This document shows positions 1,249 through 63,206 of a DNA stretch of 64,000 nt, in pieces. A program made the position numbers and the translations under genes. Under the pieces are notes generated by a model. That model searched no databases, was not told the origin of the DNA, and was given only the letters and a program-made list of their open reading frames with translations. Location of the stretch: the NCBI GenBank assembly GCA_937139365.1, contig CAKZPT010000090.1, positions 77,346-141,345 of the forward strand, written 5' to 3'. The DNA is from an uncultured bacterium (lineage in GTDB: Bacteria > Verrucomicrobiota > Kiritimatiellia > PWTM01). The stretch's first letter is position 1, and every line of letters begins with the position of its first letter.

Positions 1249-1521
1249 CTACTCCTCGTGGAACTTCAGATCGAACAGCTCGGCCACCGCCGCAACGGCC
1301 TCGGCGGCGTCCTCACCGCGGGCGCGCACGCGGACCTGCGCGCCGTGCTCGCAGCCGAGCGTCAGCACCCCCATGATGCTCTTGGCCGACACCGCGACGC
1401 CGTCCTTCACCAGTTCCACGTTCGCGCGGAAACGGCTGGCCATCTTCACCAGCAGCGCCGCCGGCCGCGCATGCATGCCGAACCGGTTGAGGACCACGAC
1501 GTCGCGGACCGCCTCGCCGAC
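1249..1521 (-). CDS. ptsH: Phosphocarrier protein HPr. The start is uncertain; the track ORF begins at 1608 but would overlap hprK.
   Basis: GMHARPAALLVKMASRF...SAKSIMGVLTLG...GEDAAEAV. This is the HPr active-site His15 motif (HARPA) and the Ser46 region (KSIMG). The expected length is about 85 to 90 aa. Confidence 0.7.
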   Translation of the reverse strand, partial: VGEAVRDVVVLNRFGMHARPAALLVKMASRFRANVELVKDGVAVSAKSIMGVLTLGCEHGAQVRVRARGEDAAEAVAAVAELFDLKFHEE

Positions 1522-1537
1522 GGACTGTGGACCGGTC

Positions 1538-2485
1538 TCAGTCACCGCTGCGAATCCTCTCCGCGCCCAGCCGCTCCATGATCCGCTGATCCAGCTCCTT
1601 GGCCGCATCGTGGCCCAGCTGGCGCAACCGGAAGTTCAGCGCCGCCGCCTCGACGATCAGGCTGATGTCGCGCCCCGCCACCACGGGGATGCGAAAGAAC
1701 GGAATCGGCACCCCCAGCACGTCGCGGCTGCCCTGATCCAGACCCGTGCGCTCCTCCTCCTCCGGGCCCAGCGCGCGTTCCAGCCGGACGATCATGTCCA
1801 GCCGCTTCTCCCGCCGCACCGACGTCACCCCGTACAGGCTCGGCACGTGGATGATCCCCAAGCCCCGGATCTCCATGTGAAACCGCGTGATGTCCGATGC
1901 CGTGCCGAACACCTCGCCGAGGCTTGAGCGCCGCAGCTCGACCAGGTCGTCCGCGACGAGGCTGTGGCCGCGGGCGACCAGCCCCAGCGCCGTCTCGCTC
2001 TTGCCGACCCCCGGCGGCCCTTCGATGATAACGCCGATGCCCATGATGTCCACCATCGTCCCCTGGTAGCGCTGGCGGGGAGCGGTGAGGTCCTCGATCA
2101 GCACCGCGGCCAGTTGGACGAACCGGCCGGTGATCAGCTGGCTGCGGAGGATCGGCACGCGGAACTCGCGAGCCATCTGCCGGATCTCGCGCACAGGGCG
2201 GATGCTCCGAGCGAACACCAGGCAGGGGATCTCCGCCTCGAAAAACGCCCGGATCCGGGCCACGCGTTCCTCCGGCGACAACCCCTTGAGGTACGTCAGC
2301 TCCGCCAGCCCGATCACCTGGATGCGGCGGTGCGCGAAATAGCGCAGGAATCCCGCCAGCGCCAAGCCCGGCCGGTTGATCGCCGGCTCGGGCACCGCCC
2401 GGTCCAGGTGTTCCCCGCCCTGAAATACGTCGAGCTCGAGCACGACGCGCCCGGCCTCCAGGAACTGGCGGACCGTCAGGCTCAT
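1538..2485 (-). CDS. hprK: HPr kinase/phosphorylase
   Basis: The Walker A motif GPPGVGKSE is followed by LVADDLVEL, the HprK signature. It is 315 aa. There is a 4-nt ATGA overlap with the stop of hpf. Confidence 0.9.
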   Translation of the reverse strand: MSLTVRQFLEAGRVVLELDVFQGGEHLDRAVPEPAINRPGLALAGFLRYFAHRRIQVIGLAELTYLKGLSPEERVARIRAFFEAEIPCLVFARSIRPVREIRQMAREFRVPILRSQLITGRFVQLAAVLIEDLTAPRQRYQGTMVDIMGIGVIIEGPPGVGKSETALGLVARGHSLVADDLVELRRSSLGEVFGTASDITRFHMEIRGLGIIHVPSLYGVTSVRREKRLDMIVRLERALGPEEEERTGLDQGSRDVLGVPIPFFRIPVVAGRDISLIVEAAALNFRLRQLGHDAAKELDQRIMERLGAERIRSGD

Positions 2486-2823
2486 TCCATCTCCGCGGCG
2501 CCGCCGGCGGCCCGGCGGGCCGGTCGGTCGGCCTTGTGCTCGTGCCGCCGTTCAAACCATTTCCGGATCTGAAGCTCGACGTGGTCCACCGCCTGGTCGA
2601 TGGACTGGTACATGTCGGCCGACTCGCGGCGCGACTCGACCGGCCCGTGGTGAGGCACGTGCACCACGACCTCGGCGATGTGCCGGTGCTTCTCCACCAT
2701 CAACACGACGTGCGCGTCCTGCAGCCGCGGAAACTCGCCCAGCCGCGCGCGCATTCGCTGCTCGACGTGGTCGCGAAGCGCGTCCGTGACCTCCACGTGG
2801 CGTCCGGTGATCGAGATCCTCAT
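2482..2823 (-). CDS. hpf: Ribosome hibernation promoting factor (sigma-54 modulation protein family), 113 aa
   Basis: MRISITGRHVEVTDALRDHVEQRMRARL...AEVVVHV... is a typical RaiA/HPF N-terminus. An AGGAG Shine-Dalgarno sits upstream of the ATG at 2823. The track ORF extends spuriously upstream. Confidence 0.85.
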   Translation of the reverse strand: MRISITGRHVEVTDALRDHVEQRMRARLGEFPRLQDAHVVLMVEKHRHIAEVVVHVPHHGPVESRRESADMYQSIDQAVDHVELQIRKWFERRHEHKADRPARRAAGGAAEME

Positions 2824-2849
2824 CGGTGGCTCCTTTCCATGGGGTGGTC

Positions 2850-3584
2850 CTACATGCTGAACCTCGGCCCCAGATACAGTTCGCGGCTGACGGGGTCGTG
2901 GATCAGGAACTCGCTGGTGCCCTCCCGCAACACCCGCCCCTCGCAGATGAGGTAGGCCCGGTCCACCACCGCCAGCGTCTCTCGGACGTTGTGGTCGGTG
3001 ATGAGGATGCCCAGCCCGCGCTGCTTCAGGTTCATCACGATCTGCTGCACGTCGTAGACCGCCAGCGGATCCACGCCGCTGAACGGCTCGTCGAGCAAGA
3101 TCAGCGAGGGATTGGTCACCAACGCCCGCGTGATCTCTAGGCGCCGCCGTTCCCCGCCGCTGAGCGTGAAGGCCTTCTGGCCGGCGAGATGGCCGATCCG
3201 CAGGTCGCCCAGCAGGTGCTCCAGACGCAGCCGTCGCTCGCGCGCCGTCATCGGCAGCGTCTCGAGGATCGCCATCACGTTCTCGGCCACCGTTAGGTGT
3301 CGGAAGACCGATGGCTCCTGTGCCAGGTAACCCATGCCCATGCGCGCCCGCTGGTACATCGGCCGCCGCGTCACGTCCCGGCCCTCGAACCACACCCGGC
3401 CCGCCGTCGGCCGGATCAGCCCGATGATCATGTAAAACGTCGTGGTCTTCCCCGCGCCGTTGGGGCCGAGCAGGCCCACGATCTCGCCCGGGGCAACCGA
3501 GATCTCCACGCCGTCCACGACGCGCCGCCGGCGGTACTCCTTGACCAGCCCATCGGTCCGCACCAATGCCGCGCCGGCCACCAT
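2850..3584 (-). CDS. lptB: LPS export ABC transporter ATP-binding protein
   Basis: GLLGPNGAGKTT (Walker A), LSGGERRRLEI (ABC signature), ILLDEPFSGVD (Walker B). The position next to lptA/lptC supports the call. Confidence 0.9.
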   Translation of the reverse strand: MVAGAALVRTDGLVKEYRRRRVVDGVEISVAPGEIVGLLGPNGAGKTTTFYMIIGLIRPTAGRVWFEGRDVTRRPMYQRARMGMGYLAQEPSVFRHLTVAENVMAILETLPMTARERRLRLEHLLGDLRIGHLAGQKAFTLSGGERRRLEITRALVTNPSLILLDEPFSGVDPLAVYDVQQIVMNLKQRGLGILITDHNVRETLAVVDRAYLICEGRVLREGTSEFLIHDPVSRELYLGPRFSM

Positions 3585-3586
3585 GG

Positions 3587-4147
3587 CTACCGCAACCCCT
3601 TCAGGAAGTCGCTTTTGCGGCTCGCGTCGGGCTGGATGATCAACCGAGCATTGGGATAACACTCCAGCCGATCCTGGCCGCGCCAGAACGTGATGCGATC
3701 GCCGGTCATCATGTCGCGGCCGCGCAGGATTCGCGGATCGCCCTCGAGCACGAACTTGCCCTCGGCCACGTCGTAGGTGGCGCGGTCCGCCCAGGCGTGC
3801 TTGTCCGCCTGGCTGATCACGACGCGGCCCGTCGCCACGATCTGCTTGACTTGGTTCGACCCGGCCATCTCGATCCGCATGCGGTCGGCCTTCATCTTCA
3901 CGTCAGGGTCGCTGATGACCACTGAGCCATCCAGTTCGATGAGCTGCCGCCGGCCGTCGTAGACGAGGCGATCGGAGGTGATCACCGTGAGGTCGCCGAA
4001 CTCCGGCACGTCGGCCGTCGGGCTGGACACGGCCGCTGCGGCTGGCGCCGCGGCCGTGGGGCCGGCTGGCGGCAGGCTCCGCGTCTGCGACCACGCGGCC
4101 ATCGTAAGGAGGCCGGCCGCCACCACACCACCCCAGCGCCGCCTCAC
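3587..4147 (-). CDS. lptA: LptA-like (OstA N-terminal domain) periplasmic LPS transport protein with signal peptide
   Basis: Signal peptide RRRWGGVVAAGLLTMAAWS. The mature part, ...DRMRIEMAGSNQVKQIVATGRVVISQADKHAWADRATYDVAEGKFVLEGD..., is an OstA/LptA beta-jellyroll. The GTG start forms a GTGA overlap with the lptC stop. Confidence 0.7.
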   Translation of the reverse strand: MRRRWGGVVAAGLLTMAAWSQTRSLPPAGPTAAAPAAAAVSSPTADVPEFGDLTVITSDRLVYDGRRQLIELDGSVVISDPDVKMKADRMRIEMAGSNQVKQIVATGRVVISQADKHAWADRATYDVAEGKFVLEGDPRILRGRDMMTGDRITFWRGQDRLECYPNARLIIQPDASRKSDFLKGLR

Positions 4148-4611
4148 GGCCCGCCTCCCGTCCCGCCGGCCGCCGCCCGCAGGTCCGCCGGCAGGCTCCG
4201 ACGGACGTCGCGCAGCACCACGCGCGCGTTGGTCAGGATCATGAACCTCTGCTGCCGATGGTCGTACCGATAATGATGGCCGGTGATCACGGCGCCGCCC
4301 CGCACGATCCGGACCGTCGAGGTGGACTGCGCCACGCCGGTGCGCCGGTGGTAGACGCAATGAGGCGACGTGATCCGCGTCTCCACCTCGCCGCCGCGGT
4401 AGAATTCGACTTTCACGTTCTGAAGCTCGATTAGGTCGGGCGACACCATGGCGGCGTGGTCGCCGAACAACTGGGATCGCAGCGTGCCGTCGTCGTCGTA
4501 GTCGGGAATTCGAAATCCCTCCATCCGGCCGCCAGGCTGGAGCTGGCCCAGCGCGGCCAGCGCCGCCACCGCCAGCATCACCGCGCCGGTTCGTGCCGCG
4601 CCGCGAGTCAT
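4144..4611 (-). CDS. lptC: LptC-like membrane-anchored LPS export protein
   Basis: An N-terminal anchor MTRGAARTGAVMLAVAALAAL is followed by a small beta domain. It is called from its position between kdsA and lptA. There is an ATGA overlap with the kdsA stop. Confidence 0.6.
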   Translation of the reverse strand: MTRGAARTGAVMLAVAALAALGQLQPGGRMEGFRIPDYDDDGTLRSQLFGDHAAMVSPDLIELQNVKVEFYRGGEVETRITSPHCVYHRRTGVAQSTSTVRIVRGGAVITGHHYRYDHRQQRFMILTNARVVLRDVRRSLPADLRAAAGGTGGGP

Positions 4612-5459
4612 GCGCGTCTCCGCCCCGGCCGCGCCGGCGTCCGCACGGCCCGGTCGATCGCGGTCAGCCGCGCCCACAGGGCCGGCAGATCGCGCAACGG
4701 CAGAGAGTTGGGCCCGTCCGAAAGCGCGCGCCGCGGATCGGGATGCGTCTCGACGAAGACGCCGTCGCAGCCGGCCGCCACGGCCGCGCGTGCCAGCGCC
4801 GGCGCCAGCGCGCCGTCGCCGCCGGAACGATCCCCCGCCCCGCCCGGCCGCTGGACGCTGTGCGTGGCGTCGAAGATCACCGGCCAGCCGGTCTCCTTCA
4901 TCCAGACCAGACCGCGCATGTCCACCACCAGGTTGTTGTAGCCGAAGGTCGTTCCCCGCTCCGTCAGAAGGATCCGCCGGCCGCCCGCCGACTCGATTTT
5001 TTCGATCGTCGGCCGCAGGTCCCACGGCGCGAGAAACTGTCCCTTTTTCACGTTCACCGCGCGGCCGGTCCGGGCCGCCGCAACGACGAGATCCGTCTGA
5101 CGGCACAGGAACGCCGGGATCTGCAGCACGTCCGCCACCTCCGCCGCGGCGGCCGCCTGCGCGGGCTCGTGGATGTCGGTCAGCACCGGCAGGCCGTGGC
5201 GCCGTTTGACCTCGGCGAGGATCTCGAGCCCCGCCTCCAACCCCGGCCCCCGATAGGATCGGATCGAGGTGCGGTTGGCCTTGTCGTACGATGCTTTGAA
5301 GATCAACGGTACACCCGTCCGGTCGGCCCAATCGGCCAGACGCGCTGCGATCTCAAGGCAACTCCGCCGGCTCTCGATAACGCACGGGCCGGCGATCAAC
5401 ACCACGGGATGGCCCCCACCGACGACCACCGGTCCGATCCGAATCGCGCGCCCCGTCAT
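4608..5459 (-). CDS. kdsA: 2-dehydro-3-deoxyphosphooctonate aldolase (KDO-8-phosphate synthase)
   Basis: GPCVIESR...PLIFKASYDKANRTS...VNVKKGQF...PVIFDATHSVQ...GCDGVFVETHPDP is a full-length KdsA with its signature motifs. Confidence 0.9.
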   Translation of the reverse strand: MTGRAIRIGPVVVGGGHPVVLIAGPCVIESRRSCLEIAARLADWADRTGVPLIFKASYDKANRTSIRSYRGPGLEAGLEILAEVKRRHGLPVLTDIHEPAQAAAAAEVADVLQIPAFLCRQTDLVVAAARTGRAVNVKKGQFLAPWDLRPTIEKIESAGGRRILLTERGTTFGYNNLVVDMRGLVWMKETGWPVIFDATHSVQRPGGAGDRSGGDGALAPALARAAVAAGCDGVFVETHPDPRRALSDGPNSLPLRDLPALWARLTAIDRAVRTPARPGRRRA

Positions 5460-5598
5460 TCCGCCGCCAGTCTATCGGCCGCCGCCTGCGATTTCCAGTC
5501 CGCCGCTTCGCGTGCCCCACGGCCGTGGCCCGCCGCGCTGCGGTGGGCAGGCCCCCATCCTCCGCTCCTTTCCCCTCCTGATCAGTCCTCGAGTCCTC

Positions 5599-5854
5599 GG
5601 GGACAGGCACGAAGAACTCATGGGGGACGAGGCAGGCAGACCAAAACCGGTCGGGAAAAGCTCGAGTCGCACACGCGTCGAGCCAACCGCCATCGTCGCC
5701 GGCCGATGCGGCCACCCCAATCGAAAACGGCCCCTGACATGATCCCTCCGGAAGGACAGGCACGAGGAGCCGGGCATGGAAAAAACAAGGGAACAACCGA
5801 TTTCAGATGGCGATGACTCGCGGGGACAGGCACGAAAACAGGCACGAAAACATG
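5599..5854 (+). repeat. Four direct copies of a GGACAGGCACGA-like element. Each is followed within about 5 to 10 nt by CATG(G).
   Basis: Copies lie at about 5601-5614 (GGACAGGCACGAAG), 5753-5766, 5824-5835 and 5839-5851, the last being an internal CAGGCACGAAAAC duplication. All are in the kdsA/serA divergent intergenic region. Confidence 0.6.
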
Positions 5855-5992
5855 TAGGCAAGCCCGCTGACGGCACCCTCGCCCGAATTCGTTTAGCTGC
5901 TCGTTATGTGACGAGATTGCTTGATATTGTGACGATGGTCACGACAAAGTGCTTGCCAAGCACAAAAGGTCCAGTGTAGAGTCCTCGCAAAG

Positions 5993-6074
5993 GTTCCAAA
6001 CATTGGAGCCTAGGTCAGCCGAAAGTTCCAAACCTTGGAACCCCAGCTTGCATGTAGTTCCAATCTTTGGAAGT
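5993..6074. promoter_or_regulatory. Three tandem 7-3-7 palindromes, TTCCAA-N3-TTGGAA, spaced about 30-31 bp apart, 60-140 bp upstream of serA
   Basis: GGTTCCAAacaTTGGAGCC (5993-6011), GTTCCAAaccTTGGAAC (perfect, about 6026-6042) and GTTCCAAtctTTGGAAG (about 6056-6072). Spacing of about three helical turns suggests operators on the same DNA face. Confidence 0.5.
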
Positions 6075-6132: not shown

Positions 6133-7725
6133 ATGAAGAAGAAGGTGCTGATCCCGACGAAGCTCGATCGGATCGCAGCGGACATCCTCGCAAGACATGG
6201 CGGCTACGAGGTGGTGCAGGATGATACCGTCGGCTCGGACGAAGATCTCCTGCGTCTGGCGTCGCAACATCCCGACGCCTACGCGCTGATCGTGCGCAGT
6301 GAGCGGGTGACGCCGCAGGTGATCGACGCCGTGCCGGGCCTGAAGGTGATCATCCGCGCTGGGGCGGGGGTCAACACGATCGACACACGATACGCACGCC
6401 GGAGGGGAATCGATGTGATGAACACGCCCGGCGCCAACGCCAACGCCGTCGCCGAGGAGGTCATCGCGTTGGTGCTGGCGGACATGCGCCAGATCCTGCA
6501 AGCCGATCCCTCCTGCCGGGCCGGTCGCTGGGAAAAGAAGGCGTTCATGGGGCGCGAACTGGCCGGGAAGACCGTCGGCATTGTTGGCCTTGGCGCCATC
6601 GGGCGGCTTCTGGCCCGCCGCCTCAGCGGGTTCGACTGCCGCCTCCTGGGCTATGATCCCTTCGTTTCGCCCGACCTGGCCGCCGAGGTCGGCGTCACTC
6701 TGACCGACCTGCCGGCGTTGTTCGCCGAATCGGACGTCGTCAGCCTCCACCTGCCCGAAAACGAAACCACCCGCGGCATGGTGAACCGGGACCTGCTCGG
6801 CCGGATGAAGAGCGGGGCGATCCTCGTGAACTGCGCCCGCGCCGGCATCCTCGTCGAAGCCGACCTGCGCGCGATCAAGGCGGAGAAACAACTGCGGTTC
6901 CTCAACGACGTCTACCCCAAGGACGTCGAGGGTCCCAAGTCCGTCGCGGACATCGCCGACCTGATGATGCCGCATCTGGGCGCCAGCACGCGCGAGGCCA
7001 ATCAGATGGCCGCCCGCCGCGCTGCAGAGCAGCTCATCGAGTTCGACGACAAGGGCATCACCTCCTACATCGTGAACCGCGACATCCCCGAGGGGCTCGA
7101 CCGCTCGTTCGCGGACCTCGCCTTCCGCCTGACGCGGCTGTGCCGGGCGCTGGCCGGCCCCGACCGGCCGCTGAAGATGATCGAGACCAGCTTCTACGGC
7201 AGCCTCAAGCCGTTCGCGAACTACCTGATCGTCCCGATCGTCGCGGCGCTGGACGAATCGTTCGACCGCTCGATGGACCCGGGCGCCGCCCGTCGACTCC
7301 TGGCGGAGCGCGGCATCGAGTACGTGGACCGCGTGACGGACGACCGCAAGGGATACCAGAACTCGATCACGGTGGACCTGACCGTGGACCGCGGCGGCGG
7401 CGCCCTTCAGCGCACCAGCGTTCGCGGGACCGTGACGGAAGGAGCCCTGATGGTCTCCCGCGTGGACGATTTCCATAAACTCTATTTCGAGCCGAGCGGC
7501 CACCTGGTCGCGTTCGCTTACGCCGACCGGCCGGGCGTGATGGGGCAGATCGGTGCCATGCTGGCGCAGGCCGGCATCAACATCGACGATATCCGCAACC
7601 CCCACGATTCGACCGGGGCCAACTCCATCGCGATCCTGAAGGTCAATCAGCCCGTCCCGGCCGACACGGTCCGCCAAATCGCGGATCGGATCCAAGCCAC
7701 GGTGAGCTGCGCGGTCACACTCTGA
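6133..7725 (+). CDS. serA: D-3-phosphoglycerate dehydrogenase with C-terminal ACT domain
   Basis: Rossmann motif GIVGLGAIG. It has 2-hydroxyacid dehydrogenase catalytic and nucleotide-binding domains and a C-terminal ACT regulatory domain. The likely start is MKKKVLIP, which has a GGAGG Shine-Dalgarno. The track ORF starts at 6067. Confidence 0.9.
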   Translation: MKKKVLIPTKLDRIAADILARHGGYEVVQDDTVGSDEDLLRLASQHPDAYALIVRSERVTPQVIDAVPGLKVIIRAGAGVNTIDTRYARRRGIDVMNTPGANANAVAEEVIALVLADMRQILQADPSCRAGRWEKKAFMGRELAGKTVGIVGLGAIGRLLARRLSGFDCRLLGYDPFVSPDLAAEVGVTLTDLPALFAESDVVSLHLPENETTRGMVNRDLLGRMKSGAILVNCARAGILVEADLRAIKAEKQLRFLNDVYPKDVEGPKSVADIADLMMPHLGASTREANQMAARRAAEQLIEFDDKGITSYIVNRDIPEGLDRSFADLAFRLTRLCRALAGPDRPLKMIETSFYGSLKPFANYLIVPIVAALDESFDRSMDPGAARRLLAERGIEYVDRVTDDRKGYQNSITVDLTVDRGGGALQRTSVRGTVTEGALMVSRVDDFHKLYFEPSGHLVAFAYADRPGVMGQIGAMLAQAGINIDDIRNPHDSTGANSIAILKVNQPVPADTVRQIADRIQATVSCAVTL

Positions 7726-7911: not shown

Positions 7912-8868
7912 CTAACCGATGCCCTCGAAGAGCACGGTCGAGAGGTACCGCTCGCCCGCGTCGGGAAGCACCACGACGATCGTCTTGCCGGCTGCGGCCT
8001 CTTCGCGCGCCACGCGCAGCGCCGCCGCGACCGCCGCGCCGCAGGAGATGCCGCCGAGGATCCCCTCGTCGCGCGCCAGCCGCCGCGCACACTCCACGGC
8101 CTCGGCGCTGTCCACCTGCTCGACGCGGTCCACAAGCGAAAGGTCCAGGACGTCCGGGATGAAGCCCGCGCCGATGCCCTGAATCTTGTGCGGGCCGGGC
8201 TTCAGCTCCTGGCCGGCCAGCTTCTGCGAGATCACCGGGCTTTCGCGCGGCTCGACGGCGATCGACACCAGCGGGCGGCCGAGCGTCTTCTTGATGTAGC
8301 GCGACACGCCGGTGATGGTTCCGCCGGTCCCGACGCCCGAGACCAGGAAATCGACCTGTCCCCCGGTGTCGTTCCAGATCTCGGGGCCGGTGGTGGTCTC
8401 GTGGATGCGCGGATTGGCGGGGTTTTTGAACTGCTGCGGCATGAAGTAGCGCCCGGGATCGGAGGCCGCGATCTCCTCGGCGCGCCGGACGGCGCCGCGC
8501 ATGCCCTCGGCGCCGGGCGTGAGCACCAGCCGCGCGCCGAACATGGCGAGAACGCGCCGGCGTTCGAGGCTCATCGTCTCGGGCATCGTCAACGTCAGCG
8601 GATACCCGCGGGCGGCGCAGACGTACGCCAGCGCGATGCCCGTGTTGCCGCTCGTCGGCTCGATGATCTCCATGCCCGGCTTCAACACGCCGCGCTTCTC
8701 GGCGTCCCACACCATGGCGGCGCCGATGCGGCACTTCACCGAGTAGGCCGGGTTGCGGCCCTCGATCTTCGCCAGCACCGTCGCTTTGAGGCCCGCCGCT
8801 AAGCGGTTGAGCCGCACCAGCGGCGTGCGCCCGATGGATTCCGAATTGTCGGCGTAGATCTGACTCAT
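7912..8868 (-). CDS. cysK: Cysteine synthase A (O-acetylserine sulfhydrylase)
   Basis: The PLP-lysine motif is in [17 protein letters not shown] and [10 protein letters not shown] are the glycine-rich loops of the fold-type II family. The real start is MSQIYADN at 8868; the track ORF is extended upstream. Confidence 0.9.
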
Positions 8869-10052
8869 GTCGCGTCTCCCTTCGCGGATCGCCCGGTCGT
8901 CGGGCCGCCGCCCGCGGCCGCCAACGCCTGGTCCAGGTCCGCGATCAAATCGTCCGCGTGCTCGATCCCGACCGACAGCCGCACCAGCCCCTCCCCGATC
9001 CCGCGGCGGCGCCGCTCGGAGGGCGGGATGGCGGCGTGGGTCATCCGGGCCGGATGGCAGACCAGCGACTCCACTCCGCCGAGGCTCTCGGCGAGGAAGA
9101 ACAGCCGCAGCGCGCCGACGAACCGTTCGACGGCCGGAAATCCACCGGCCAGCTCGGCGCTGACCATGCCGCCAAACCCCCGCATCTGCCGCCCGGCGAG
9201 GGCGTGCTGCGGATGGTCGGGCAAGCCGGGATAGTGCACGCGCTCGACCGCCGGGTGCGCGGCGAGAAAGTCGGCCACACGTTGTGCGTTCCGACAGTGC
9301 GCCTCCATCCGGAGGGCCAGCGTCTTGAGGCCGCGCAGGGCCAACCAACAATCCCACGGCCCCGGCACCGCGCCGACGGCGTTCTGATGCCATTTGAGCT
9401 TTCGGTGCAGTTCGGGATCGGTCACCACGACCGCCCCACCGATCAGGTCGCTGTGGCCGCCGAGGTATTTGGTGGAGCTATGCACGACGAGATCCGCCCC
9501 CAGCTCCAGCGGCCGCTGGAGCCATGGGCTGGCGAAGGTGTTGTCCACCGCGACCCGCGCCCCACATCGGTGGGCGGCCTCCGAGACCGCGGCGATGTCG
9601 GCCAGCCGCAACAAGGGGTTGGTGGGCGTTTCGAGCCACACCAACCGCGTGTCGTCGGTCAACGCCGACAGGAAGGCCTCCGAGTCCTCGGCCGGGGCAT
9701 AGTCGATGCGCAAGCCCCACGGTCGGAAATGGCGTTCGAACAGGCGGTAGGTTCCGCCGTACAGGTCGTCGCCGGCCAGCACGCGGTCGCCCGGCCGCAG
9801 AAGGCTCAACACCGCGCTCGTCGCCGCGACGCCGGAGGCGAACGCCAGCCCGTGCGATCCGCCCTCGAGCGAGGCCAGGGCCGTCTCCAACGCGCGGCGC
9901 GTCGGGTTGTCGGTCCGGGAGTACTCGTAGCCGCGGGGCCGCCCGATCCCGTCCTGCCGGAACGTCGAGGTTTGGTACACCGGCACCGTCACCGCCCCGG
10001 TGAGCGGGTCCGGCTCCTGTCCATCGTGGATGGCCCGGGTCTCGAACCTCAT
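8865..10052 (-). CDS. Cystathionine gamma-lyase or gamma-synthase family PLP enzyme. In this context it is most likely reverse-transsulfuration CGL.
   Basis: AIHDGQ...YSRTDNPTR...[16 protein letters not shown] (the PLP Lys is in STKY). It is 395 aa, starting at MRFETRAIH. There is an ATGA overlap with the upstream CBS stop. Confidence 0.8.
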
Positions 10053-11443
10053 ACGCCCGCCCCCCAGCCGTCCAGTACCGGCCGCCCGTTGCGGACGATC
10101 ATTCGGTCGATGACGTCCATCCGCGTGATCACCCCTTCGCCGAGGCCGGCGCGGGTGACGAGCACCGCCGGCGCGCCGGCGAGAAACAGGCGATAAGCTT
10201 CCGACACCTCCACGGCCGCGTCCAGCTCCGGCAGAGGACGGCCCATCACCGCCGACACCTCCTGGTTGACCAGGTCGATGCCGTCGAACACCAGTTTCAT
10301 CACCGTGGACTCGTTGAGGCAGCCGACCGCGCGGCCGCCGTCCATCACGGGAAGCTGGGAGATGTTGTACGTGTGCATCAACTGCACGGCCCGGCGCAGC
10401 CGGTCGCGCGGCGATACCGCGACCAGCGGCGGCAGCACCTGTTTGGCTTGGAGCACTTCGCCGACGGTGATCCGCTCGCCGGCGGGCCCGTCCCAGAACC
10501 CGTGTTCGCGCATCCAGTCGTCGCTGTGGCACTTGCTCAGGTAATTGCGGCCGGTGTCCGGCAGCAGCGCTACCACCAGCCGCGGCGCGGGCAAACGCTG
10601 CGCCACGCGCAGCGCGGCGGCCACGGCCGTGCCCGACGAGCCGCCCGCGAGCATCCCCTCCTCCCGCGCCAGGCGGCGCGCCGTGCGGAAGGACTCGCGA
10701 TCGCTGATCCGCACCATCTCGTCCACGACCGGCCGATCGAAGGTCCGCGGCACAAAATCCTCCCCGATGCCCTCGACGAGATAGGGGCGGGGCGAGTCGC
10801 CCGAGAGGATCGAGCCCTCCGGGTCCGCCCCCACCACCAGGATGTCGGGGTTGCGCTCCTTGAGGTAGCGCCCGACGCCCGAGATGGTGCCGCCCGTGCC
10901 CATGCCGGCGACGAACACGCCGATCCGGCCACCGGTCTGTTCCCAGATTTCGGGGCCGGTCGACCGGTAATGGGTGGCGGGGTTTTCGCGGTTCGCAAAC
11001 TGGTTGGGGCGCCACGCCCCCGGGATCTCGCGGGCCAGCCGGTCGGCCACGCCGTTGTAGCTTTCGGGCGAGTCGGGCGGCACCGCGGTGGGGGTCACCA
11101 CGACCTCGGCCCCGTAGGCCTTGAGCAGGCGGACCTTGTCCTCGCTCATCTTGTCCGGTAGGACGACGATCAGGCGGTAGCCCTTCACCGCGGCCGCCTG
11201 GGCGAGGCCGACGCCGGTGTTGCCGGCGGTCGCCTCGATGATCACGCCGCCGGGGCGCAGTTCGCCGGCGCGCTCGGCGGCCTCGATCATGGACAGCGCG
11301 ATCCGATCCTTCACGCTCCCGCCGGGGTTGAACATCTCCGCCTTCACATAGATCGTCGAGGGCAAACCGGCCGCCAGCCGTCGCAGCCGGATCAGGGGTG
11401 TGCGGCCGACGGCCTCCAGAACGCTGTCCAGCATGCCGCTCAT
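10049..11443 (-). CDS. Cystathionine beta-synthase: a fold-type II PLP domain plus a C-terminal CBS domain pair
   Basis: GSVKDRIA...ATAGNTGVGLA...GMGTGGTISG is a CysK/CBS-family catalytic core, followed by about 130 aa of CBS domains. The start is MSGMLDSV. There is an ATGA overlap with the osmC stop. Confidence 0.8.
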   Translation of the reverse strand: MSGMLDSVLEAVGRTPLIRLRRLAAGLPSTIYVKAEMFNPGGSVKDRIALSMIEAAERAGELRPGGVIIEATAGNTGVGLAQAAAVKGYRLIVVLPDKMSEDKVRLLKAYGAEVVVTPTAVPPDSPESYNGVADRLAREIPGAWRPNQFANRENPATHYRSTGPEIWEQTGGRIGVFVAGMGTGGTISGVGRYLKERNPDILVVGADPEGSILSGDSPRPYLVEGIGEDFVPRTFDRPVVDEMVRISDRESFRTARRLAREEGMLAGGSSGTAVAAALRVAQRLPAPRLVVALLPDTGRNYLSKCHSDDWMREHGFWDGPAGERITVGEVLQAKQVLPPLVAVSPRDRLRRAVQLMHTYNISQLPVMDGGRAVGCLNESTVMKLVFDGIDLVNQEVSAVMGRPLPELDAAVEVSEAYRLFLAGAPAVLVTRAGLGEGVITRMDVIDRMIVRNGRPVLDGWGAGV

Positions 11444-11889
11444 CGGGGCGTCAAGGAACGGATGCGCAACGTCAGCGGCGTAGGCCGGCCGAGGTTGTCG
11501 GACACGGGGCACCGCGCCTCCACGTCCGCCAGCCATCCCCGAAGGACCTCGGGCGGCGCGTCCGAGTCGAACGACAACGTCGCCTCGATCCACTGGAAGC
11601 CGGCGCGATCGGCGGTCGACCGGTTCAGCAGCCGGTCCGGATTGAGCCCGCCGCGTGCGACGATCTCAAGGTTCCGGAGGGCGATTCCCCGCTCGGCCGC
11701 CACCAGATGGGCGACCACGTTCAGGCAGCCGGCCAGTCCCGCCAGCACCGTCTCGACGGGGTTGGGACCGGCGTCCGAGCCGCCCAGCTCGGGCGGCTCG
11801 TCCACCACCAGCGAAAACTGCCGCGCCGCGACCCGTACGCGGGCCGGCGACTCGGACGCGGCACGCACCTCGAACGTCAGCTCTGGCAT
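11440..11889 (-). CDS. OsmC/Ohr family peroxiredoxin-like protein
   Basis: 149 aa, with the GCLNVVAHL...CPV pattern of the OsmC family (two conserved Cys). Confidence 0.75.
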   Translation of the reverse strand: MPELTFEVRAASESPARVRVAARQFSLVVDEPPELGGSDAGPNPVETVLAGLAGCLNVVAHLVAAERGIALRNLEIVARGGLNPDRLLNRSTADRAGFQWIEATLSFDSDAPPEVLRGWLADVEARCPVSDNLGRPTPLTLRIRSLTPR

Positions 11890-11914
11890 CGCACGGTCTC
11901 TCCCGCCTCGCCGT

Positions 11915-13282
<1,368 letters not shown>

Positions 13283-13717
13283 CTAAATCTGGAAATCGTA
13301 TTGTGTCTGCGCGACGCGCTCCCGGTATCGTTCGGCCAATTCCGATAGGCGCACTTGCGCGAAGGCGTTCCGGACCTGGTCGGCCACGACGGCCCACGTG
13401 TCGGCGATCACATCACCCGCCGCGCGATCCTGGCTGAGGTGGTCAGCCTTAACCGTTGGCAAAGGCATCCCCTCGCTGGCCTCCACAATCTCGGCCAACG
13501 TGACGTCGCGCGCCGGCCGGGCGAGCCGGAACCCACCCGAGGGGCCGCGAACGGCAGCGACAAGGCCTGCCCGGGCGAGGGCGGAGGCGACGATCCAAAG
13601 ATATTTCTCAGAAATGCCGTGTCGCCGCGCGACGCGGGAAATGGTGACGGTCGCCTCCTCCCCGCCGACGGTGAGGTCGAGCAGAAACAGCGCCGCGTAT
13701 GTCGTCCGCTTCGTCAT
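13283..13717 (-). CDS. Rrf2 family transcriptional regulator (CymR/IscR-like)
   Basis: 144 aa, with an Rrf2 winged-helix N-terminus (TVTISRVARRHGISEKYLWIVASALARAGLVAAVRGPSGGFRLARP). It is the first gene of the sulfur amino-acid gene string. Confidence 0.8.
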   Translation of the reverse strand: MTKRTTYAALFLLDLTVGGEEATVTISRVARRHGISEKYLWIVASALARAGLVAAVRGPSGGFRLARPARDVTLAEIVEASEGMPLPTVKADHLSQDRAAGDVIADTWAVVADQVRNAFAQVRLSELAERYRERVAQTQYDFQI

Positions 13718-19689: not shown

Positions 19690-20286
19690 TCAGCTTCCCG
19701 GATGCTCCGCCCGCCCGCCCTGCCGGCACAGCGGGCACTCCGCGGGCGGCCACGTCGTCGGCGCCAGTCGCAACAGCGAGACCAGCGGCGCGTCGAACCG
19801 CACCGTGCCGTCGCTGCGGTCCACCAGCACCGCCACCGCCGCGACCACGCCGCCGGCGCCGTGGACGATCCGGATCGTCTCCTCCACCCGCCCGCCCCGC
19901 GTCACCACGTCCTCGGCCACGACGAACCGCTCGCCGGGGCGGATCGCAAACCCCCGCCGGACCACCAGCCGGCCCTCCTGCTTCTCCGCGAAGATCGAAC
20001 GGACGTTCAACGCGCGGGCGATTTCGTGGCCGACGAAGAGCCCCCCCATCGCCGGCGAGATCACCGCATCGGCTTCGACGCCCGCCGCCGTCAGCCGGCG
20101 GGCGAGCTCGCCGCACAGCCGGGCCGTGCGGTCGGGCCACTGCAGCAGCAGGGCGCACTGAAAATACTGGTCGCTGTGGAGGCCCGACCTCAGCTCGAAA
20201 TGGCCCGAGAGCAGCGCGCCGGTCTCCCGAAACATCGCCAGGACGTCCGCCTCGGACAGCCCCACCCCGTTCGTCATCTCCGCCAT
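19690..20286 (-). CDS. pyrE: Orotate phosphoribosyltransferase
   Basis: PRPP-binding motif [11 protein letters not shown]. The start MAEMTNGV is at 20286. Confidence 0.85.
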
Positions 20287-20401
20287 GATCCCCCGTCGCG
20301 CGGTTCCAAGGATTGGAAGCCCGTCCGTCACTCGCGTCCAACCCTTGGACGGCGTTCGCGGCATTGTGCCTGCCGGCGCGAAAAAGAAAAGCCCGACGCG
20401 G

Positions 20402-42840: not shown

Positions 42841-43008
42841 TCGCGTTCCTTCACCGGGGCACGAAATCAATAGCGTACCCGCCCGCTCGCTCGATGTCAA
42901 CGCGGCATCCCGCCGCGTGCGGCTTGGCGCCCACCACTTCCAAACGTTGGGCGCTCGCCGGCCTCCGCCCTCCCAGGTCCGCCTCGGGAAACGTAGCCGG
43001 CCCCGGGC

Positions 43009-49142: not shown

Positions 49143-49868
49143 GTGACGGCGGGCGGTTTCGCGGCCGCAGCAATCGCGGCCCTGTTGACGGGCATGGCCA
49201 AATGCGGCGTGCCGGGCCTCGGCATGCTATCGGTGCCGCTGATGGCCATGGCCCTCCCCGCCCGGGCCTCGGTCGGTGGCATGTTGCCGATTCTGCTGGC
49301 CGGCGACGTGCTCGCCATCGCCATGTACCGGCAGCACGCCCGATGGGACTGGATCGGGCGTCTGGCGCCGTGGGTCGCCCTAGGGCTGGCGGGGGGGGCG
49401 TGGTGGTTGTCCCACCTGTCCGATTCAGAGCTGCGACCACTGCTTGGGATTCTCGTACTGGCCATGGTGGCGCTGGATCTGGCGCGGCGCCGTCTGGACT
49501 GGCATCGTCTCGCCCACCACCCCGCGGCCGCCGCGGTCGTTGGCACCGCGGCGGGTATCGCAACGACGCTGGGCAACGCCGCCGGTCCTGTGATGAACGT
49601 CTATCTCCTCGCCCGCGGCCTGCCCCGCCATCTGTTCGTTGGCACCGCGGCGTGGTTCTTTTTTTTCGTCAACCTGACCAAGCTGCCCGTCTTCATCGGA
49701 CAGCGGATGCTCACTCCCGAGCTGGCCCGGCTGACCGCCCTCACGATGCCCCTTGTGGCACTCGGCGGCTTCGTCGGCCGCTGGCTCCTCGCGCGGCTGC
49801 CGGAGCATGTCTTTCAGCGGCTTGTGCTCGCCCTGTCTGCCCTGGCCGGCCTGCGACTGTTGATTTGA
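49143..49868 (+). CDS. TSUP family transporter (TauE/SafE sulfite-exporter-like)
   Basis: 241 aa, with a 4+4 TM repeat. Conserved glycines are in GVPGLGMLSVPLM and TTLGNAAGPVMNVYLL. Confidence 0.8.
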   Translation: MTAGGFAAAAIAALLTGMAKCGVPGLGMLSVPLMAMALPARASVGGMLPILLAGDVLAIAMYRQHARWDWIGRLAPWVALGLAGGAWWLSHLSDSELRPLLGILVLAMVALDLARRRLDWHRLAHHPAAAAVVGTAAGIATTLGNAAGPVMNVYLLARGLPRHLFVGTAAWFFFFVNLTKLPVFIGQRMLTPELARLTALTMPLVALGGFVGRWLLARLPEHVFQRLVLALSALAGLRLLI

Positions 49869-53713: not shown

Positions 53714-54741
53714 GGGGCCTCCATGTCTGACCGCGCTGGCACGGAAAAAAAGCATCTCACGATACCGTCACGGAATGAACAGTGCAAATCATCGGCGCGA
53801 CCAGGAGCAGATGAGGGCGGCGGGTCATCGGCCCAATCGCAGAACAATCCGTCCGAGCCCTTGCCCCGGAGCCTACCGTTGGTGACGAGGCGCCGTCGGC
53901 GACCACCCATGTGCCGCGACCGGACCCATCGAGAAAGACCGCCGCCGCCCCCGCGTGGCACGGCCCGGAGGCCGCCAAAGGCGACCGGCGTCGTGCCCCG
54001 AAATCCACGAAAACGGCCCACGATTCGATGTCCGCGAGTGCTGGCCCGTTACCGCCTCCAGTTCGTACCGATCCCCCCACTGCCGGCGCCGATACAGAGA
54101 AAGGCCGACCCGTCCCACGCGGCCGCAGGCGTAGGCCGAACCGACGACCTCGAAACTGTCCCTCCGGTCGCCGTCCATGAACAGCCGAGCGCCGGCGTGC
54201 ACGCCGGCCGCTGAGCTATTCGCGCCGGCAGTTCCGTCGGCCCCGCCGACGTCAGCAAAACGCCCACGCCGCCGACCGGCGCCCCCGACGGCTCGCCGTG
54301 TAGCACGAACCTCAGGTCGGAACCGATCCGTTTCAACACCTGCAGTCCACTCCACCCATCGGCGGCGATGGCGCCGTGGACATGCACGCCACCAAATGTT
54401 GCGCTACCAGCGACCCCACCCTTTCCCAGGCCCGTTCTACGATGGCGGGCTACGCGCGAACACCGCACACGGTAAAGGCCCCCGCCACGCGCCGAACCAT
54501 GATTCGTGCCCGCCCTGCCCTCCCCGGTGCCGGAGCGGATAGCACGGTCCGGTCCAGCCGGGTGTGCGTCCGCCTCCGCGCTTTTTGATGCCGAGTGAAC
54601 CCGCACTGGAACGACAGCCGTTCGAACGACCGGAACCGATCTTGCCGGCTCAACCGCGACGGACAAAACCCGCCTACGCCCACTCAAATGGTCAACTCGA
54701 ATGATCCGGAGCTTCCGCGAAACATCATGCCGACGGGCAGC

Positions 54742-60719: not shown

Positions 60720-60767
60720 CCCCGCTGGCCCCGACACGCCCGCGGGGCCGCACGCGGTGTCCGGAGT

Positions 60768-62087
60768 TTGGAACACCGGCAGGCCGCCGTGTCCAAGGCT
60801 TGGAACACCGTGTCTGAGGCCCCGGCCATCCCCCTGCCCCCGGGCACCGCGAACGAGCCGCCGGCGCTGTCCGCGCGCCGTTCCGAAGCCGCGCGGCGCG
60901 CGGCGGACCTCCCCCCGCCCGCGCCGCACGACGAGGAGTGGCGGCGAACGGATCCGGCCCGTTTTCCTCTCGACGCTTGGCCGCCCGTACACCTCGAGCC
61001 CCGTCCGCCGAGGCCAGCCGACGCGGACCCGCTCGACGAGTTTTTCGACGTTGTGATCGAGATGGACGGCTCCGGCTGGTCGGTGCGCGACCGCGGCGGA
61101 GTGACGCAGAGCGGCCGGATCGCCGTCCTGTCGCTGGCGGAGGCCGCGGAGCGACACCCGGACGCCGTCGAGACGCTTTGGACGCTCGAGCCCGCCGTCC
61201 GGCCGCGCGACCGGCACGAGTGGGCGGCGATGGCGGCGGCGGCTGGCGTCTTTATCCGTGTGGAACCGGGCGCCGAGTTCGCTCGGGGGGTGCTCGTCCG
61301 CGTGCGGCAGCCGGCGGGTCGGTGGTTCTGTCCGCTGACGATGCTCGATGTCAGCGAGCGCTCGACGCTTCACGTGGTCTCGGCGATCCTCTCGGAGCCC
61401 GGCGACGGGCTCGCGGCGGAGACCGTGCGGTACCGGGTCGGGGCCGGCGGACGCCTCCGGCTGGCGCGGCTCCAGTTGTGCGCCGGCGGGCCGTCGCAAA
61501 TGGAGTTCGTGCACGGCCGGCTGTCGGAGGATGCGCAGCTCGACGCGGTCAGCGTGCACCTCGGTGGGGCGGCCGTCCGCAGCCGCGTCGGCGCCGAGGC
61601 GGCTGGCCGCGGCGCAGGCGTGCGCATCGGCGGCCTGCTGCTGGCCGCCGGCACCGAGCAGGCGGACCAGCAGACCGTGCAGATCCACTCGGCGCCGGAC
61701 ACCACCAGCGACCTGCTGTTCAAGGCGGCGGTGCGCGACCGCGCCCGCTCCGTCTACCGCGGGCTGATCGCCGCCCATCGCGGGGCGGTTCGCATCGCCG
61801 CCTACCAGAAGAACCAGAACCTCATCCTCAACGAGGGGGCCCGAGTCGACTCGCTGCCGGGCCTGCGCATCGACGCCGACGACCTCACCTGCACGCACGG
61901 CGCAACAATCGGCAGCCTCGACCCCGACGAGCTGTTCTACCTCCGTTCCCGCGGTCTGCCAGAGTCCGTGGCGCGGCGCCTGATCCTCGAGGGATTCTTC
62001 GAGGAGATCGTCTCGCGCCTGGCCATGCCGGCGCTGCGCGACGTCGTGCGGCGACACCTGGCGGAACGCATGGACGCACCCGCCTGA
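60768..62087 (+). CDS. sufD: Fe-S cluster assembly protein SufD
   Basis: SufB/SufD family C-terminal domain. Called by its position after sufB. The SufD-type C-terminus is ...LFYLRSRGLPESVARRLILEGFF. Confidence 0.85.
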   Translation: MEHRQAAVSKAWNTVSEAPAIPLPPGTANEPPALSARRSEAARRAADLPPPAPHDEEWRRTDPARFPLDAWPPVHLEPRPPRPADADPLDEFFDVVIEMDGSGWSVRDRGGVTQSGRIAVLSLAEAAERHPDAVETLWTLEPAVRPRDRHEWAAMAAAAGVFIRVEPGAEFARGVLVRVRQPAGRWFCPLTMLDVSERSTLHVVSAILSEPGDGLAAETVRYRVGAGGRLRLARLQLCAGGPSQMEFVHGRLSEDAQLDAVSVHLGGAAVRSRVGAEAAGRGAGVRIGGLLLAAGTEQADQQTVQIHSAPDTTSDLLFKAAVRDRARSVYRGLIAAHRGAVRIAAYQKNQNLILNEGARVDSLPGLRIDADDLTCTHGATIGSLDPDELFYLRSRGLPESVARRLILEGFFEEIVSRLAMPALRDVVRRHLAERMDAPA

Positions 62088-62111: not shown

Positions 62112-63050
62112 TCAGGCCACGTCCGCGACGGGCACGGCCGGTTCGCGCGCCGGCGACGGCGCGGCCAGCAGGCGGGCGGCCACCTCGGCGGCCCTTCGAC
62201 CCGAAAACAGCATGCCCGCGAACGTCGGGCCCATCCTGGGTAGACCGTGCACCGTGGCCACGGCCATGCCCGCCACGATCAGGCCCGGAACCACCTCGCC
62301 CGTCCGCTCCACCACCGCGCTCTCCGACGCCTCGACGTCCATCGCACCGCATTCCCCGGCCATGGCCAGGCGGCCGCGCCGCGCCAGGCTCGCGCACACA
62401 CGCGCGTCGTGGCCCGTGGCGTCCACGACGACCCGCGCCTCCAGCGCGATCGGGTCCACGCAGGTGATCTGACGGGGCAGCGCCGCCACGGGGGACCAGT
62501 TGATCACCACCCCCTCCACCCGTCCGTTGCGCAGGACCACGTCCTCGAACCGCGTCATGTTCAGCACGCGGGCGCCGGCGTCGCAGGCCGCGGCGATGAG
62601 CCGAGCACAGGCATGGGGGCCGTCCGCCACCGCCAGTCCTTCGCGGGCAAACCGGTACGGGATGCCCAGCTCGTCCAGCAGCTCGTGGGCGGGTGCTCGG
62701 AAAGTCAGCGGGTTCATCAGGTAGCCGCCGATCCAGAAGCCCCCGCCGACGTAGTTGTTGTTCTCGACGATCAGCGTCCGCCAACCCCGGGCGGCCAGGT
62801 CGCGGGCAGCCATCAGCCCGCTGGGCCCCCCGCCGACGATCACGACGTCGGTGGACAGGTATTGGTCTAGGAGTTCATGGAATCCCCGCGCAATGGCGCG
62901 GCTGATCTCCACCTCGGGTACGGGCGCGAACTTCACGGTTGCTTCCTCTTCGGTTGCGCCGGCGGGGGGGATGACCCGGAGATCCCGCGCGCTCCCGCGC
63001 GCGTCCTCCGCCCGACTCCCTTCGCTGGCATGACCCAGATCAGGTTCCAA
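62112..63050 (-). CDS. thi4: Thiazole synthase Thi4 family (thiamine thiazole biosynthesis)
   Basis: FAD dinucleotide motif [11 protein letters not shown], and the Thi4 blocks [12 protein letters not shown] and [13 protein letters not shown]. The start is uncertain; it may be an internal GTG near 62936. Confidence 0.75.
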
Positions 63051-63206
63051 GGGTCTCCCGCATTCACGGGACTCTCAGGCCGTCTCGCGGCCTCCCCTGC
63101 GATGGTCACCGCATCTAATCTACCGCGGCGGCGTTTGTTTTCAAGGAAGGGGACCGCCGGATCGGCAGGGTCGCCAGACCGGCACCGACCGGTTATGCTC
63201 CGCGGC

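Follow-up and report, generated by a model that had tools for sequence, protein, structure and literature searches.

Palindromes upstream of serA

The stretch of DNA analysed here, 64 kb long, with a GC content of about 70% and further called the window, carries a serA gene for D-3-phosphoglycerate dehydrogenase (6133..7725, plus strand, 530 amino acids). Its product contains the Pfam domains 2-Hacid_dh, 2-Hacid_dh_C and ACT, and exactly the same protein is present in three metagenome contigs. The upstream neighbour kdsA (4608-5459, minus strand) is divergently oriented, and the gap of 670 bp between the two genes contains an array of three palindromes, to which no strand is assigned. The first, GTTCCAAACATTGGAGC (5993..6009; GTTCCAA-ACA-TTGGAGC), pairs in 6 of 7 arm positions, with one arm mismatch, and has a PWM score of 19.0 bits. 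The second, GTTCCAAACCTTGGAAC (6025..6041; GTTCCAA-ACC-TTGGAAC; 24.4 bits), is a perfect 7-3-7 inverted repeat. The third, GTTCCAATCTTTGGAAG (6057..6073; GTTCCAA-TCT-TTGGAAG; 29.2 bits), again with 6 of 7 arm pairs, has its centre 68 bp 5' of the serA ATG. Both sequence reading and a repeat finder confirmed what the initial annotation had described, namely three inverted repeats upstream of serA, one of them perfect, and their span of about -140 to -60 holds with the ATG at 6133. Its spacing of 30-31 bp was wrong; the palindromes follow each other, start to start, at exactly 32 and 32 bp, i.e. at about three helical turns. Two other palindromes had been reported just upstream, and both were found on reading the sequence: GTGAC-gatg-GTCAC at 5929-5944 and GCTTG-c-CAAGC, which extends to GTGCTTG-c-CAAGCAC at 5949-5963.

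A single sigma-70-like promoter is recognizable in the kdsA-serA gap, TTGCCA-18-TAGAGT at 5953..5982 on the plus strand, a match to the consensus only (1 match versus 0.1 expected from shuffles). Transcription from this promoter would place the three palindromes at about +5 to +85. A sigma-54 promoter, TGGAAC-N-TTGCAT at 6036-6054, was also considered by eye and rejected, its GG-GC distance being one base too long.

With all three palindromes in the leader under the predicted promoter, an RNA element comes into consideration: hairpins in the serA leader and in other transcripts that serve attenuation or mRNA stability or are recognized by an RNA-binding protein. Folding of the leader gives z = -3.5, and adjacent palindromes are able to pair alternatively with one another. 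The low folding energy is nevertheless expected because palindromes fold automatically; covariation is absent, as the arms are invariant in sequence; and Rfam, searched at gathering and E-value thresholds, has no family over the site. Moreover, convergent gaps contain arrays, genes may have them on either side, and the 10.4-bp periodicity of the arrays, described below, is a property of double-stranded DNA. We consider an RNA element very unlikely.

Three strain-level variants of the window's serA promoter were available, in which 13 of 276 positions are variable. None of the 13 variable columns falls within the 36 half-site positions, and two of them fall within the N3 spacers. This pattern is consistent with constraint on the half-sites, with too few changes for significance.

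Relatives of SerA in one-genome-per-species GTDB contigs all belong to PVC bacteria, labelled Kiritimatiellia, Verrucomicrobiota or Lentisphaerae, and the taxonomic range of the motif given here is based on these labels of SerA-bearing contigs. The initial annotation had made the palindromes depend on their presence at orthologous serA promoters, which holds for some relatives and not for others. Ahead of serA, two of them (L005 and L006, 76% SerA identity) possess a 32-bp pair at distances of 50 and 82 bp, and the spacer of the pair is identical between the two. By eye, a promoter-like pair of hexamers, TTGAAA-17-AAGGAT, can be recognized there; site 1 would fall between the hexamers and site 2 at about +7 to +21. 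No array is located upstream of serA in L004, which has the closest SerA (82%), or in L007 (71%), and some 70 further loci are likewise without an array at serA.

Abundance, consensus and helical phasing of the motif

Additional copies of the motif are present within the window. When TTCCAANNNTTGGAA was searched with up to 2 mismatches, 7 matches were found in 64 kb versus 0.40 expected, and none of 100 shuffles reached 7; the 17-mer with up to 3 mismatches gave 6 matches versus 0.74 expected. A PWM derived from external sites, applied at a threshold of at least 8 bits, returned the identical seven positions, compared with 0.3 in Markov shuffles. Because of this enrichment over expectation and shuffles, the palindromes are not a product of chance, and the recurrence outside serA that the initial annotation had called for is found in the window itself.

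Two of the additional occurrences are pairs with the same 32-bp step as at serA. One of them (20303..20351, starts 20304 and 20336) consists of GTTCCAAGGATTGGAAG, with a perfect core, and GTCCAACCCTTGGAC; the pair precedes pyrE (19690-20286, minus strand) by 25 and 57 bp, and a trpB2-like gene comes after pyrE. The other lies at the sufB/sufD junction (60759..60805, starts 60759 and 60791), is composed of the weak GTCCGGAGTTTGGAA and of GTCCAAGGCTTGGAA, and terminates just before the likely sufD start, GTG at 60810. The remaining single copy, TTCCAAACGTTGGGC (42938..42952, 2 mismatches, 10.5 bits), about 105 bp upstream of the minus-strand genes rplM-rpsI-argJ-argB-argD, is weak and could be due to chance. 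Every copy in the window is placed directly 5' of a gene. As regulators the window encodes only one of the Rrf2 type and a response regulator of the NtrC type; neither is tied to the motif.

Outside the window the motif is abundant. When metagenome contigs were scanned with an exact pattern of two cores at a distance of 31-32 bp, at least 120 stretches matched, where about one would be expected by an estimate from the 20 specified bases. Over the 120 listed loci (575 kb), perfect sites number 353 and one-mismatch sites 459, versus about 0 and 3 expected; these loci were picked for 31-32-bp pairs and are biased to dense genomes, so that their site densities exceed that of an average genome. In 1.19 Mb of loci not chosen for the motif, 6 perfect and 20 one-mismatch sites were counted versus 0.33 and 3.7 expected. 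They are concentrated in about eight loci, one of which belongs to the cultured Pontiella sulfatireligans, and the histogram of pair distances in the loci not chosen for the motif has a sharp peak at 31-32 bp.

A logo of 482 sites gives the extended consensus tTTTCCAA-N-S-N-TTGGAAAa. Invariance at core positions 1-6 and 10-15 of these sites is 94-100%, and 99% of them have C or G in the centre; the 5' flank is rich in T and the 3' flank in A. Read on the strand with the central C, the N3 spacer is N-C-M, with CG and CT avoided. The core is identical across contigs of about 47-72% GC. As a side observation, the half-site TTTTCCAAN is similar to the DnaA-box TTTTCCACA; dnaA itself was found only in motif-free loci, and an origin context is not demonstrable.

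Among the listed loci, sites occur singly (95 cases) or in arrays of two (91), three (33), four (18), five (6) or six (1). Distances between sites cluster at 22, 30-32, 42, 52-53, 62-64, 73-74, 83, 93-96 and 104-105 bp. After removal of the 31/32 class, the one the scan had selected for, adjacent distances still follow a period of 10.35-10.5 bp (R = 0.77, Rayleigh p ~3e-18, n = 69). A 22-bp step is usually followed by a 30-bp step, by which the phase is restored, and same-face phasing extends up to ten turns. Distances at multiples of about 10.4 bp indicate that the sites are located on one face of the helix. The spacers are unrelated in sequence except among orthologs, and share a composition of AAWTT, G/C-rich and AAWTT stretches, the pattern expected of bent DNA. 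Phasing and spacer composition together point to double-stranded DNA that is contacted or bent on one face, not to RNA.

The preferred step of 31-32 bp also leaves 16-17 nt between TTGGAA and the next TTCCAA, which is the geometry of a sigma-70 promoter, and the density of sites approaches one per operon in some contigs. The motif itself might therefore be a promoter, with TTGGAA as -35 and the next TTCCAA as -10, or alternatively an ECF-type promoter of the form GGAAC-N17-TCCAA. Such a role would account neither for the perfect two-fold symmetry of every unit nor for the many single sites (the 95 cases above), spacings of 22, 42 and 52 bp would be unsuitable for it, sites are found in convergent gaps, and a search for an independent -10 signal at a constant offset found none. 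Of all explanations considered, we regard this one as having the least to recommend it.

Genomic context of the arrays

If the palindromes were operators of a dedicated pathway, the genes behind them should have something in common. The initial annotation had suggested that the motif might define a regulon, and a local or amino-acid-specific regulator of serA, for example of the Lrp/AsnC type, controlling a coherent set of serine or amino-acid genes, would then be its reader. Three palindromes of 15-17 bp, exactly three turns apart, precede an amino-acid biosynthesis gene; other copies in the window precede pyrE-trpB2 and the rplM-arg cluster; and relatives carry pairs upstream of argJ and lysC. 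There is also a precedent in Escherichia coli, where Lrp binds phased sites about 32 bp apart, regulates serA and has a global reach that includes amino-acid genes.

A coherent regulon is not borne out by the genes adjacent to the arrays. In the listed loci, the 106 downstream genes fall into 104 clusters with unrelated functions, and the Pfam assignments of neighbours comprise sulfatases, xylose-isomerase-like barrels, methyltransferases, aroC, panB, pyk, folP, dnaE, trpA, rfbC, rpe and surE. Behind the largest arrays stand a ygiQ-like radical SAM gene, a GH127 gene, cbiM, lysC and rfbC; beside these big arrays no tRNA or rRNA genes are present. No DNA-binding family was enriched beside arrays in two Pfam surveys, one of 100 and one of 105 flanking proteins, or in a further survey around the largest arrays. 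Two ArsR-like neighbours encoded 5' of arrays were considered as an autoregulated binder and, with 33% mutual identity, treated as coincidence. No AsnC-family gene was seen among the scanned window proteins or beside any array, and the only tblastn match to E. coli Lrp was in a motif-free locus (L078). The motif itself departs from the Lrp consensus, having a G/C centre in place of an A/T-rich one. Further evidence against a serine-specific operator comes from the closest SerA ortholog, which is without an array, and from arrays located in convergent gaps, inside genes and in phages. A dedicated amino-acid operator is thus, in our opinion, improbable. The initial proposal of a cooperative operator for a dimeric regulator, bound on one face, survives in its general part, which is favoured by the invariant half-sites, the phasing of about 10.4 bp and the pair kept in two relatives; its specificity for serA or serine does not.

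In the interval 25-200 bp ahead of predicted starts, sites are enriched 2.2-3.2 fold, although this figure, like the division into intergenic and coding sites, is rough, because gene calls in the metagenome contigs were made with a crude home-made ORF picker that committed at least one strand error (argJ in L032). Two convergent gaps were verified with Pfam. One of them, 116 bp between genes for a 3-keto-disaccharide-hydrolase protein and LeuRS (L172), contains three sites and a fourth degenerate one; the other, between CoaBC and an OmpA-family gene (L139), contains four sites.

Perfect pairs are likewise found within coding sequence for conserved domains, namely those of a GT4 glycosyltransferase, Lyase_1, DinB, NadE and a hydrolase. 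The 44 perfect intragenic sites are distributed over the three reading frames as 19, 12 and 13; use of all three frames means that the constraint acts on DNA and not on the peptide. Orthologs suggest how such pairs arise. The perfect pair in the DinB gene of L113 corresponds to a pair with 3 and 2 mismatches in the 80%-identical ortholog of L014, with no indels; in the orthologs of L190 and L196 (75% identical) a perfect intragenic pair is retained in both, with only N3 altered; and the intragenic pair in argJ of L032 falls where the sequence is variable and, compared with L034, involves no indel. Judged from these sequences, intragenic pairs are gained and kept via substitution, not insertion. 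A pair upstream of argJ is common to L032 and L034, of which L034 is a Pontiella desulfatans MAG; the pair in L034 is degenerate, and in L032 a -10-like TATTTAAT lies between the two sites.

These observations bear on another class of explanation, in which the palindromes are REP/BIME- or MITE-like repeats spread by a RAYT transposase or by recombination, and the copy at serA is incidental. High copy number, occurrence in all types of intergenic region including convergent gaps, and clustering of evenly spaced palindromes would all be expected of such repeats. A cassette of about 125 bp, containing four sites and conserved linkers, was moreover found in 8 contigs with unrelated flanks and differing GC, for example upstream of adk (L085), upstream of cstA (L131) and after a GNAT gene (L087), which hints at mobility or a second function of this particular arrangement. 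On the other hand, spacers are mostly unrelated, intragenic pairs have come from point substitution without indels, and perfect pairs inside conserved domains mean that the sites are not strictly extragenic. REPs are species-specific, whereas one core is shared here by contigs of about 47-72% GC, and strict 10.4-bp phasing is no known property of REPs. A tblastn search for IS200/RAYT-like genes, a weak test, gave no match in about 1.9 Mb of loci. We judge a mobile-repeat origin of the palindromes to be unlikely.

Copies of the motif are carried by phages as well. The pattern used for the metagenome contigs, scanned against IMG/VR, identified 14 stretches, and eight contigs (51-66% GC) contain sites with at most one mismatch. 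One of these is a genuine phage (L214, large terminase at 2484-3797), in which a four-site array followed by a terminator lies just upstream of the packaging module. Another carries a pair directly after a terS-like gene (L217), and a third has a pair inside a gene that is XRE-like by eye (L216). Phages of carrier hosts thus bear the host motif. Similarly, phages of E. coli carry Fis and IHF sites.

Phage copies, a density of about one site per kb in some contigs, coding as well as non-coding locations in all three frames, and restriction to a lineage are also what might be expected of a tag for self-recognition, whether an uptake sequence of the DUS/USS type or a sequence read by repair or segregation machinery. 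Known uptake sequences, however, are asymmetric and are not known to form phased arrays of up to six, and all copies in the window are placed just 5' of genes; a tag of this kind is therefore highly improbable.

A candidate global DNA-binding protein

We propose that the serA palindromes are probably sites of a homodimeric, sequence-specific and global, nucleoid-associated-like DNA-binding protein. Its putative dimers would line up along one side of the helix, and their joint action would come from direct cooperation or from the summation of in-phase bends. The motif would accordingly represent a lineage-wide iterated element of some PVC/Kiritimatiellia-like bacteria, not one private to serA, with arrays of 1-6 sites stepping 2, 3, 4, 5 or more helical turns. 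It is this lineage-wide, iterated distribution that suggests a global architectural regulator or nucleoid-associated protein as the candidate binder. Features of that class are found here: many sites in promoters, in genes and at gene ends, together with signs of bending and phasing. Tolerance of several step sizes favours additive in-phase bending or flexible contacts over a rigid Lrp-type disc, and arrays of 4-6 sites at 31-32 bp would fit wrapping of DNA.

That a protein binds the motif, that it bends or wraps DNA and in which direction it affects serA are inferred from the motif data. With the array occupied, RNA polymerase could be impeded in leaving the promoter or in elongation, or the promoter region could become wrapped, and serA would thereby be repressed or modulated; repression is plausible because the only promoter-like site precedes the array, which in turn precedes the start codon. 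At serA, pyrE and sufD, and at argJ in relatives, the likely core promoter is overlapped by the sites or lies shortly before them, which makes local repression or modulation the likeliest outcome, but this, including the sign at serA, is offered as a guess.

A farther-reaching reading, which we hold to be possible rather than probable, is that some Kiritimatiellia-like PVC bacteria possess a chromatin-like system, in which an abundant dimer reads a near-invariant 19-bp palindrome in one-face arrays that selection keeps even in coding DNA and phages. If true, promoters, gene ends and the chromosome of these bacteria would be organised by programmed points of wrapping or bending, hundreds to thousands in number. 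Sulfated glycans are degraded to a major extent by Kiritimatiellia and related PVC bacteria, whose regulation and chromosome organisation are, to our knowledge, essentially unstudied. The motif, nearly invariant, strictly phased and common to phages and to genomes of very different GC, offers unusually clean access to the candidate binder: the 19-bp palindrome TTTTCCAATCATTGGAAAA is usable as bait for it in cultured Pontiella, and the arrays supply ready predictions of its places of action. Caution is needed in annotation: such arrays should not be read as gene-specific operators, and the one upstream of serA says little on serine-specific control.

Relationship to known systems

Arrays of the Lrp/AsnC family, such as those at E. 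coli pap and ilvIH, resemble the present ones in their palindromic units of about 15 bp with an odd centre and in a one-face spacing of about three turns. This shared spacing of about 32 bp suggests DNA wrapped on an oligomer, as in Lrp/AsnC proteins. Lrp-like phasing was found both at serA (32 and 32 bp) and in unselected loci, where 31-32 bp is the dominant distance; the Lrp consensus was not. Unlike the A/T-rich YAGHAWATTWTDCTR of Lrp, the motif is TTCCAA-NSN-TTGGAA with a G/C centre, and its sites are near-perfect where those of Lrp are degenerate, with steps of two, four and five turns occurring as well.

Fis, known from rrnB P1 and genome-wide, is similar in being a homodimeric bender with a 15-bp core, phased sites 31 and 41 bp apart, and hundreds of intergenic and genic sites that are exploited by phages. 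Its sites are, however, very degenerate and confined to gamma- and beta-proteobacteria, in contrast to the near-invariant core and the PVC carriers found here. We regard Fis and Lrp as the nearest functional analogues of the candidate binder, an analogy that does not imply membership in either family. NrdR boxes are also tandem palindromes, 31-32 bp centre to centre, covered by an oligomerising repressor over promoters, but the box differs in sequence and is limited to ribonucleotide reductase operons, while neighbours of the present arrays are mutually unrelated.

REP/BIME elements and cyanobacterial HIP1 share with the motif the form of short palindromes, copy numbers of hundreds to thousands per genome and intergenic clusters that include the 3' ends of genes; HIP1 is found in coding sequence too, like the motif. 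The present sites differ from REP and HIP1 by their 10.4-bp phasing, GC-independent core, unconserved spacers and the lack of any RAYT gene seen. In sum, the motif has the architecture of Lrp/AsnC, Fis and NrdR sites and the abundance of REP/BIME and HIP1, and differs in a defining feature from each of those open to testing. The arrays matched no Rfam family and no open-access paper in full-text searches that included exact motif strings, and a six-site array compared by BLAST with PLSDB plasmids and INPHARED phages matched no annotated record.

A last similarity concerns the half-site words. Operators of IclR/AllR, which are tetrameric binders with small regulons, have the form TGGAAA-N-TTTCCA and share GGAAA and TTTCC with the motif, but their half-sites are oppositely oriented and stand at another distance.

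Structure of the motif and its recurrence in metagenome and phage contigs

Across the 482 copies of the TTCCAA-N3-TTGGAA motif collected from all loci, the three-base centre has C or G as its middle base in 99% of cases. On the strand that carries C at this position, the following base is A or C, and the steps CG and CT are avoided. The centre of the palindrome is thus constrained and slightly asymmetric.

Motif units are also assembled into a larger arrangement, a cassette of about 125 bp composed of four to six units separated by steps of 31, 30 and 22 bp, which was found in eight metagenome contigs (L085, 2992-3089; L087, 1007-1156; L090, 5140-5237; L111, 6421-6518; L123, 8468-8587; L131, 3540-3607; L138, 2927-3024; L179, 1171-1289). 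The linkers between units, AACCGCCGAAAAATT and others, are conserved within the cassette. Contigs bearing it range from 54 to 70% GC, their flanks and neighbouring genes (adk, cstA, GNAT, DUF523) are unrelated, and several of them end 70-500 bp from the cassette. The cassette may be mobile, or it may represent a special high-affinity locus.

The host motif is present in phage contigs from IMG/VR as well. In L214 (UViG_3300035698_006241), a four-site array accompanied by a terminator (650-767) lies just upstream of the terminase module. A motif pair is located immediately 3' of a terS-like gene in L217 (10589-10634), and another (1187-1233) falls within a gene of L216 whose product has, as judged by eye, the look of an XRE-type HTH protein.

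The region between kdsA and serA

The divergent genes kdsA and serA are separated by an unusually long gap of about 670 bp (the stretch in question being 5460-5990 of the window). A 12-nt repeat, ACAGGCACGAAA, occurs there as two tandem copies (5826-5849), with a third copy 70 bp upstream (5756-5767). Three independent metagenome contigs encoding identical SerA all start at the same base, position 5860, directly after the repeat, an arrangement that suggests an assembly break, whether strain-variable or induced by the repeat.

Two further palindromes, both different in sequence from the TTCCAA motif, are found closer to serA: GTGAC-gatg-GTCAC (5929-5944) and GTGCTTG-c-CAAGCAC (5949-5963). The latter overlaps with the predicted serA -35 hexamer and may act as an operator of its own, specific to this gene. 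In L005 and L006, two loci of relatives, the region upstream of serA showed neither of the two. At L004, the locus of the closest serA ortholog (82%), the upstream region is devoid of TTCCAA-N3-TTGGAA palindromes; in their place, an A/T-rich region (9860-9900) carries the direct repeat TGGAAC-N7-TGGAAC.

Sulfur metabolism and other genes of the window

A cluster of cysteine/methionine genes (7912-13717, minus strand) runs convergently to serA; it comprises cysK-like PALP, Cys_Met_Meta_PP, PALP+CBS cystathionine beta-synthase-like, OsmC and O-acetylhomoserine sulfhydrylase-like genes. The Rrf2-family regulator encoded at its head (13283-13717, minus strand) is a likelier candidate for a specific regulator of sulfur amino-acid genes. 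No TTCCAA motif was found within the cluster.

Farther along, in an 834-aa fusion protein (51251-53755, minus strand), a pyridine-nucleotide disulfide reductase is joined to rhodanese, TusA and DsrE-like domains. This sulfur-trafficking enzyme is encoded beside a TauE/SafE exporter gene (49143-49868). A TPP riboswitch (62999-63108, minus strand), scoring 65 bits and exceeding the Rfam gathering score, is followed downstream by a Thi4-family thiazole synthase gene (62112-63050). In this diderm PVC genome, the neighbours of the HPr and HPr kinase/phosphorylase genes (1249-2485, minus strand) include kdsA and the genes for LptA and the lptB-like ABC ATPase.
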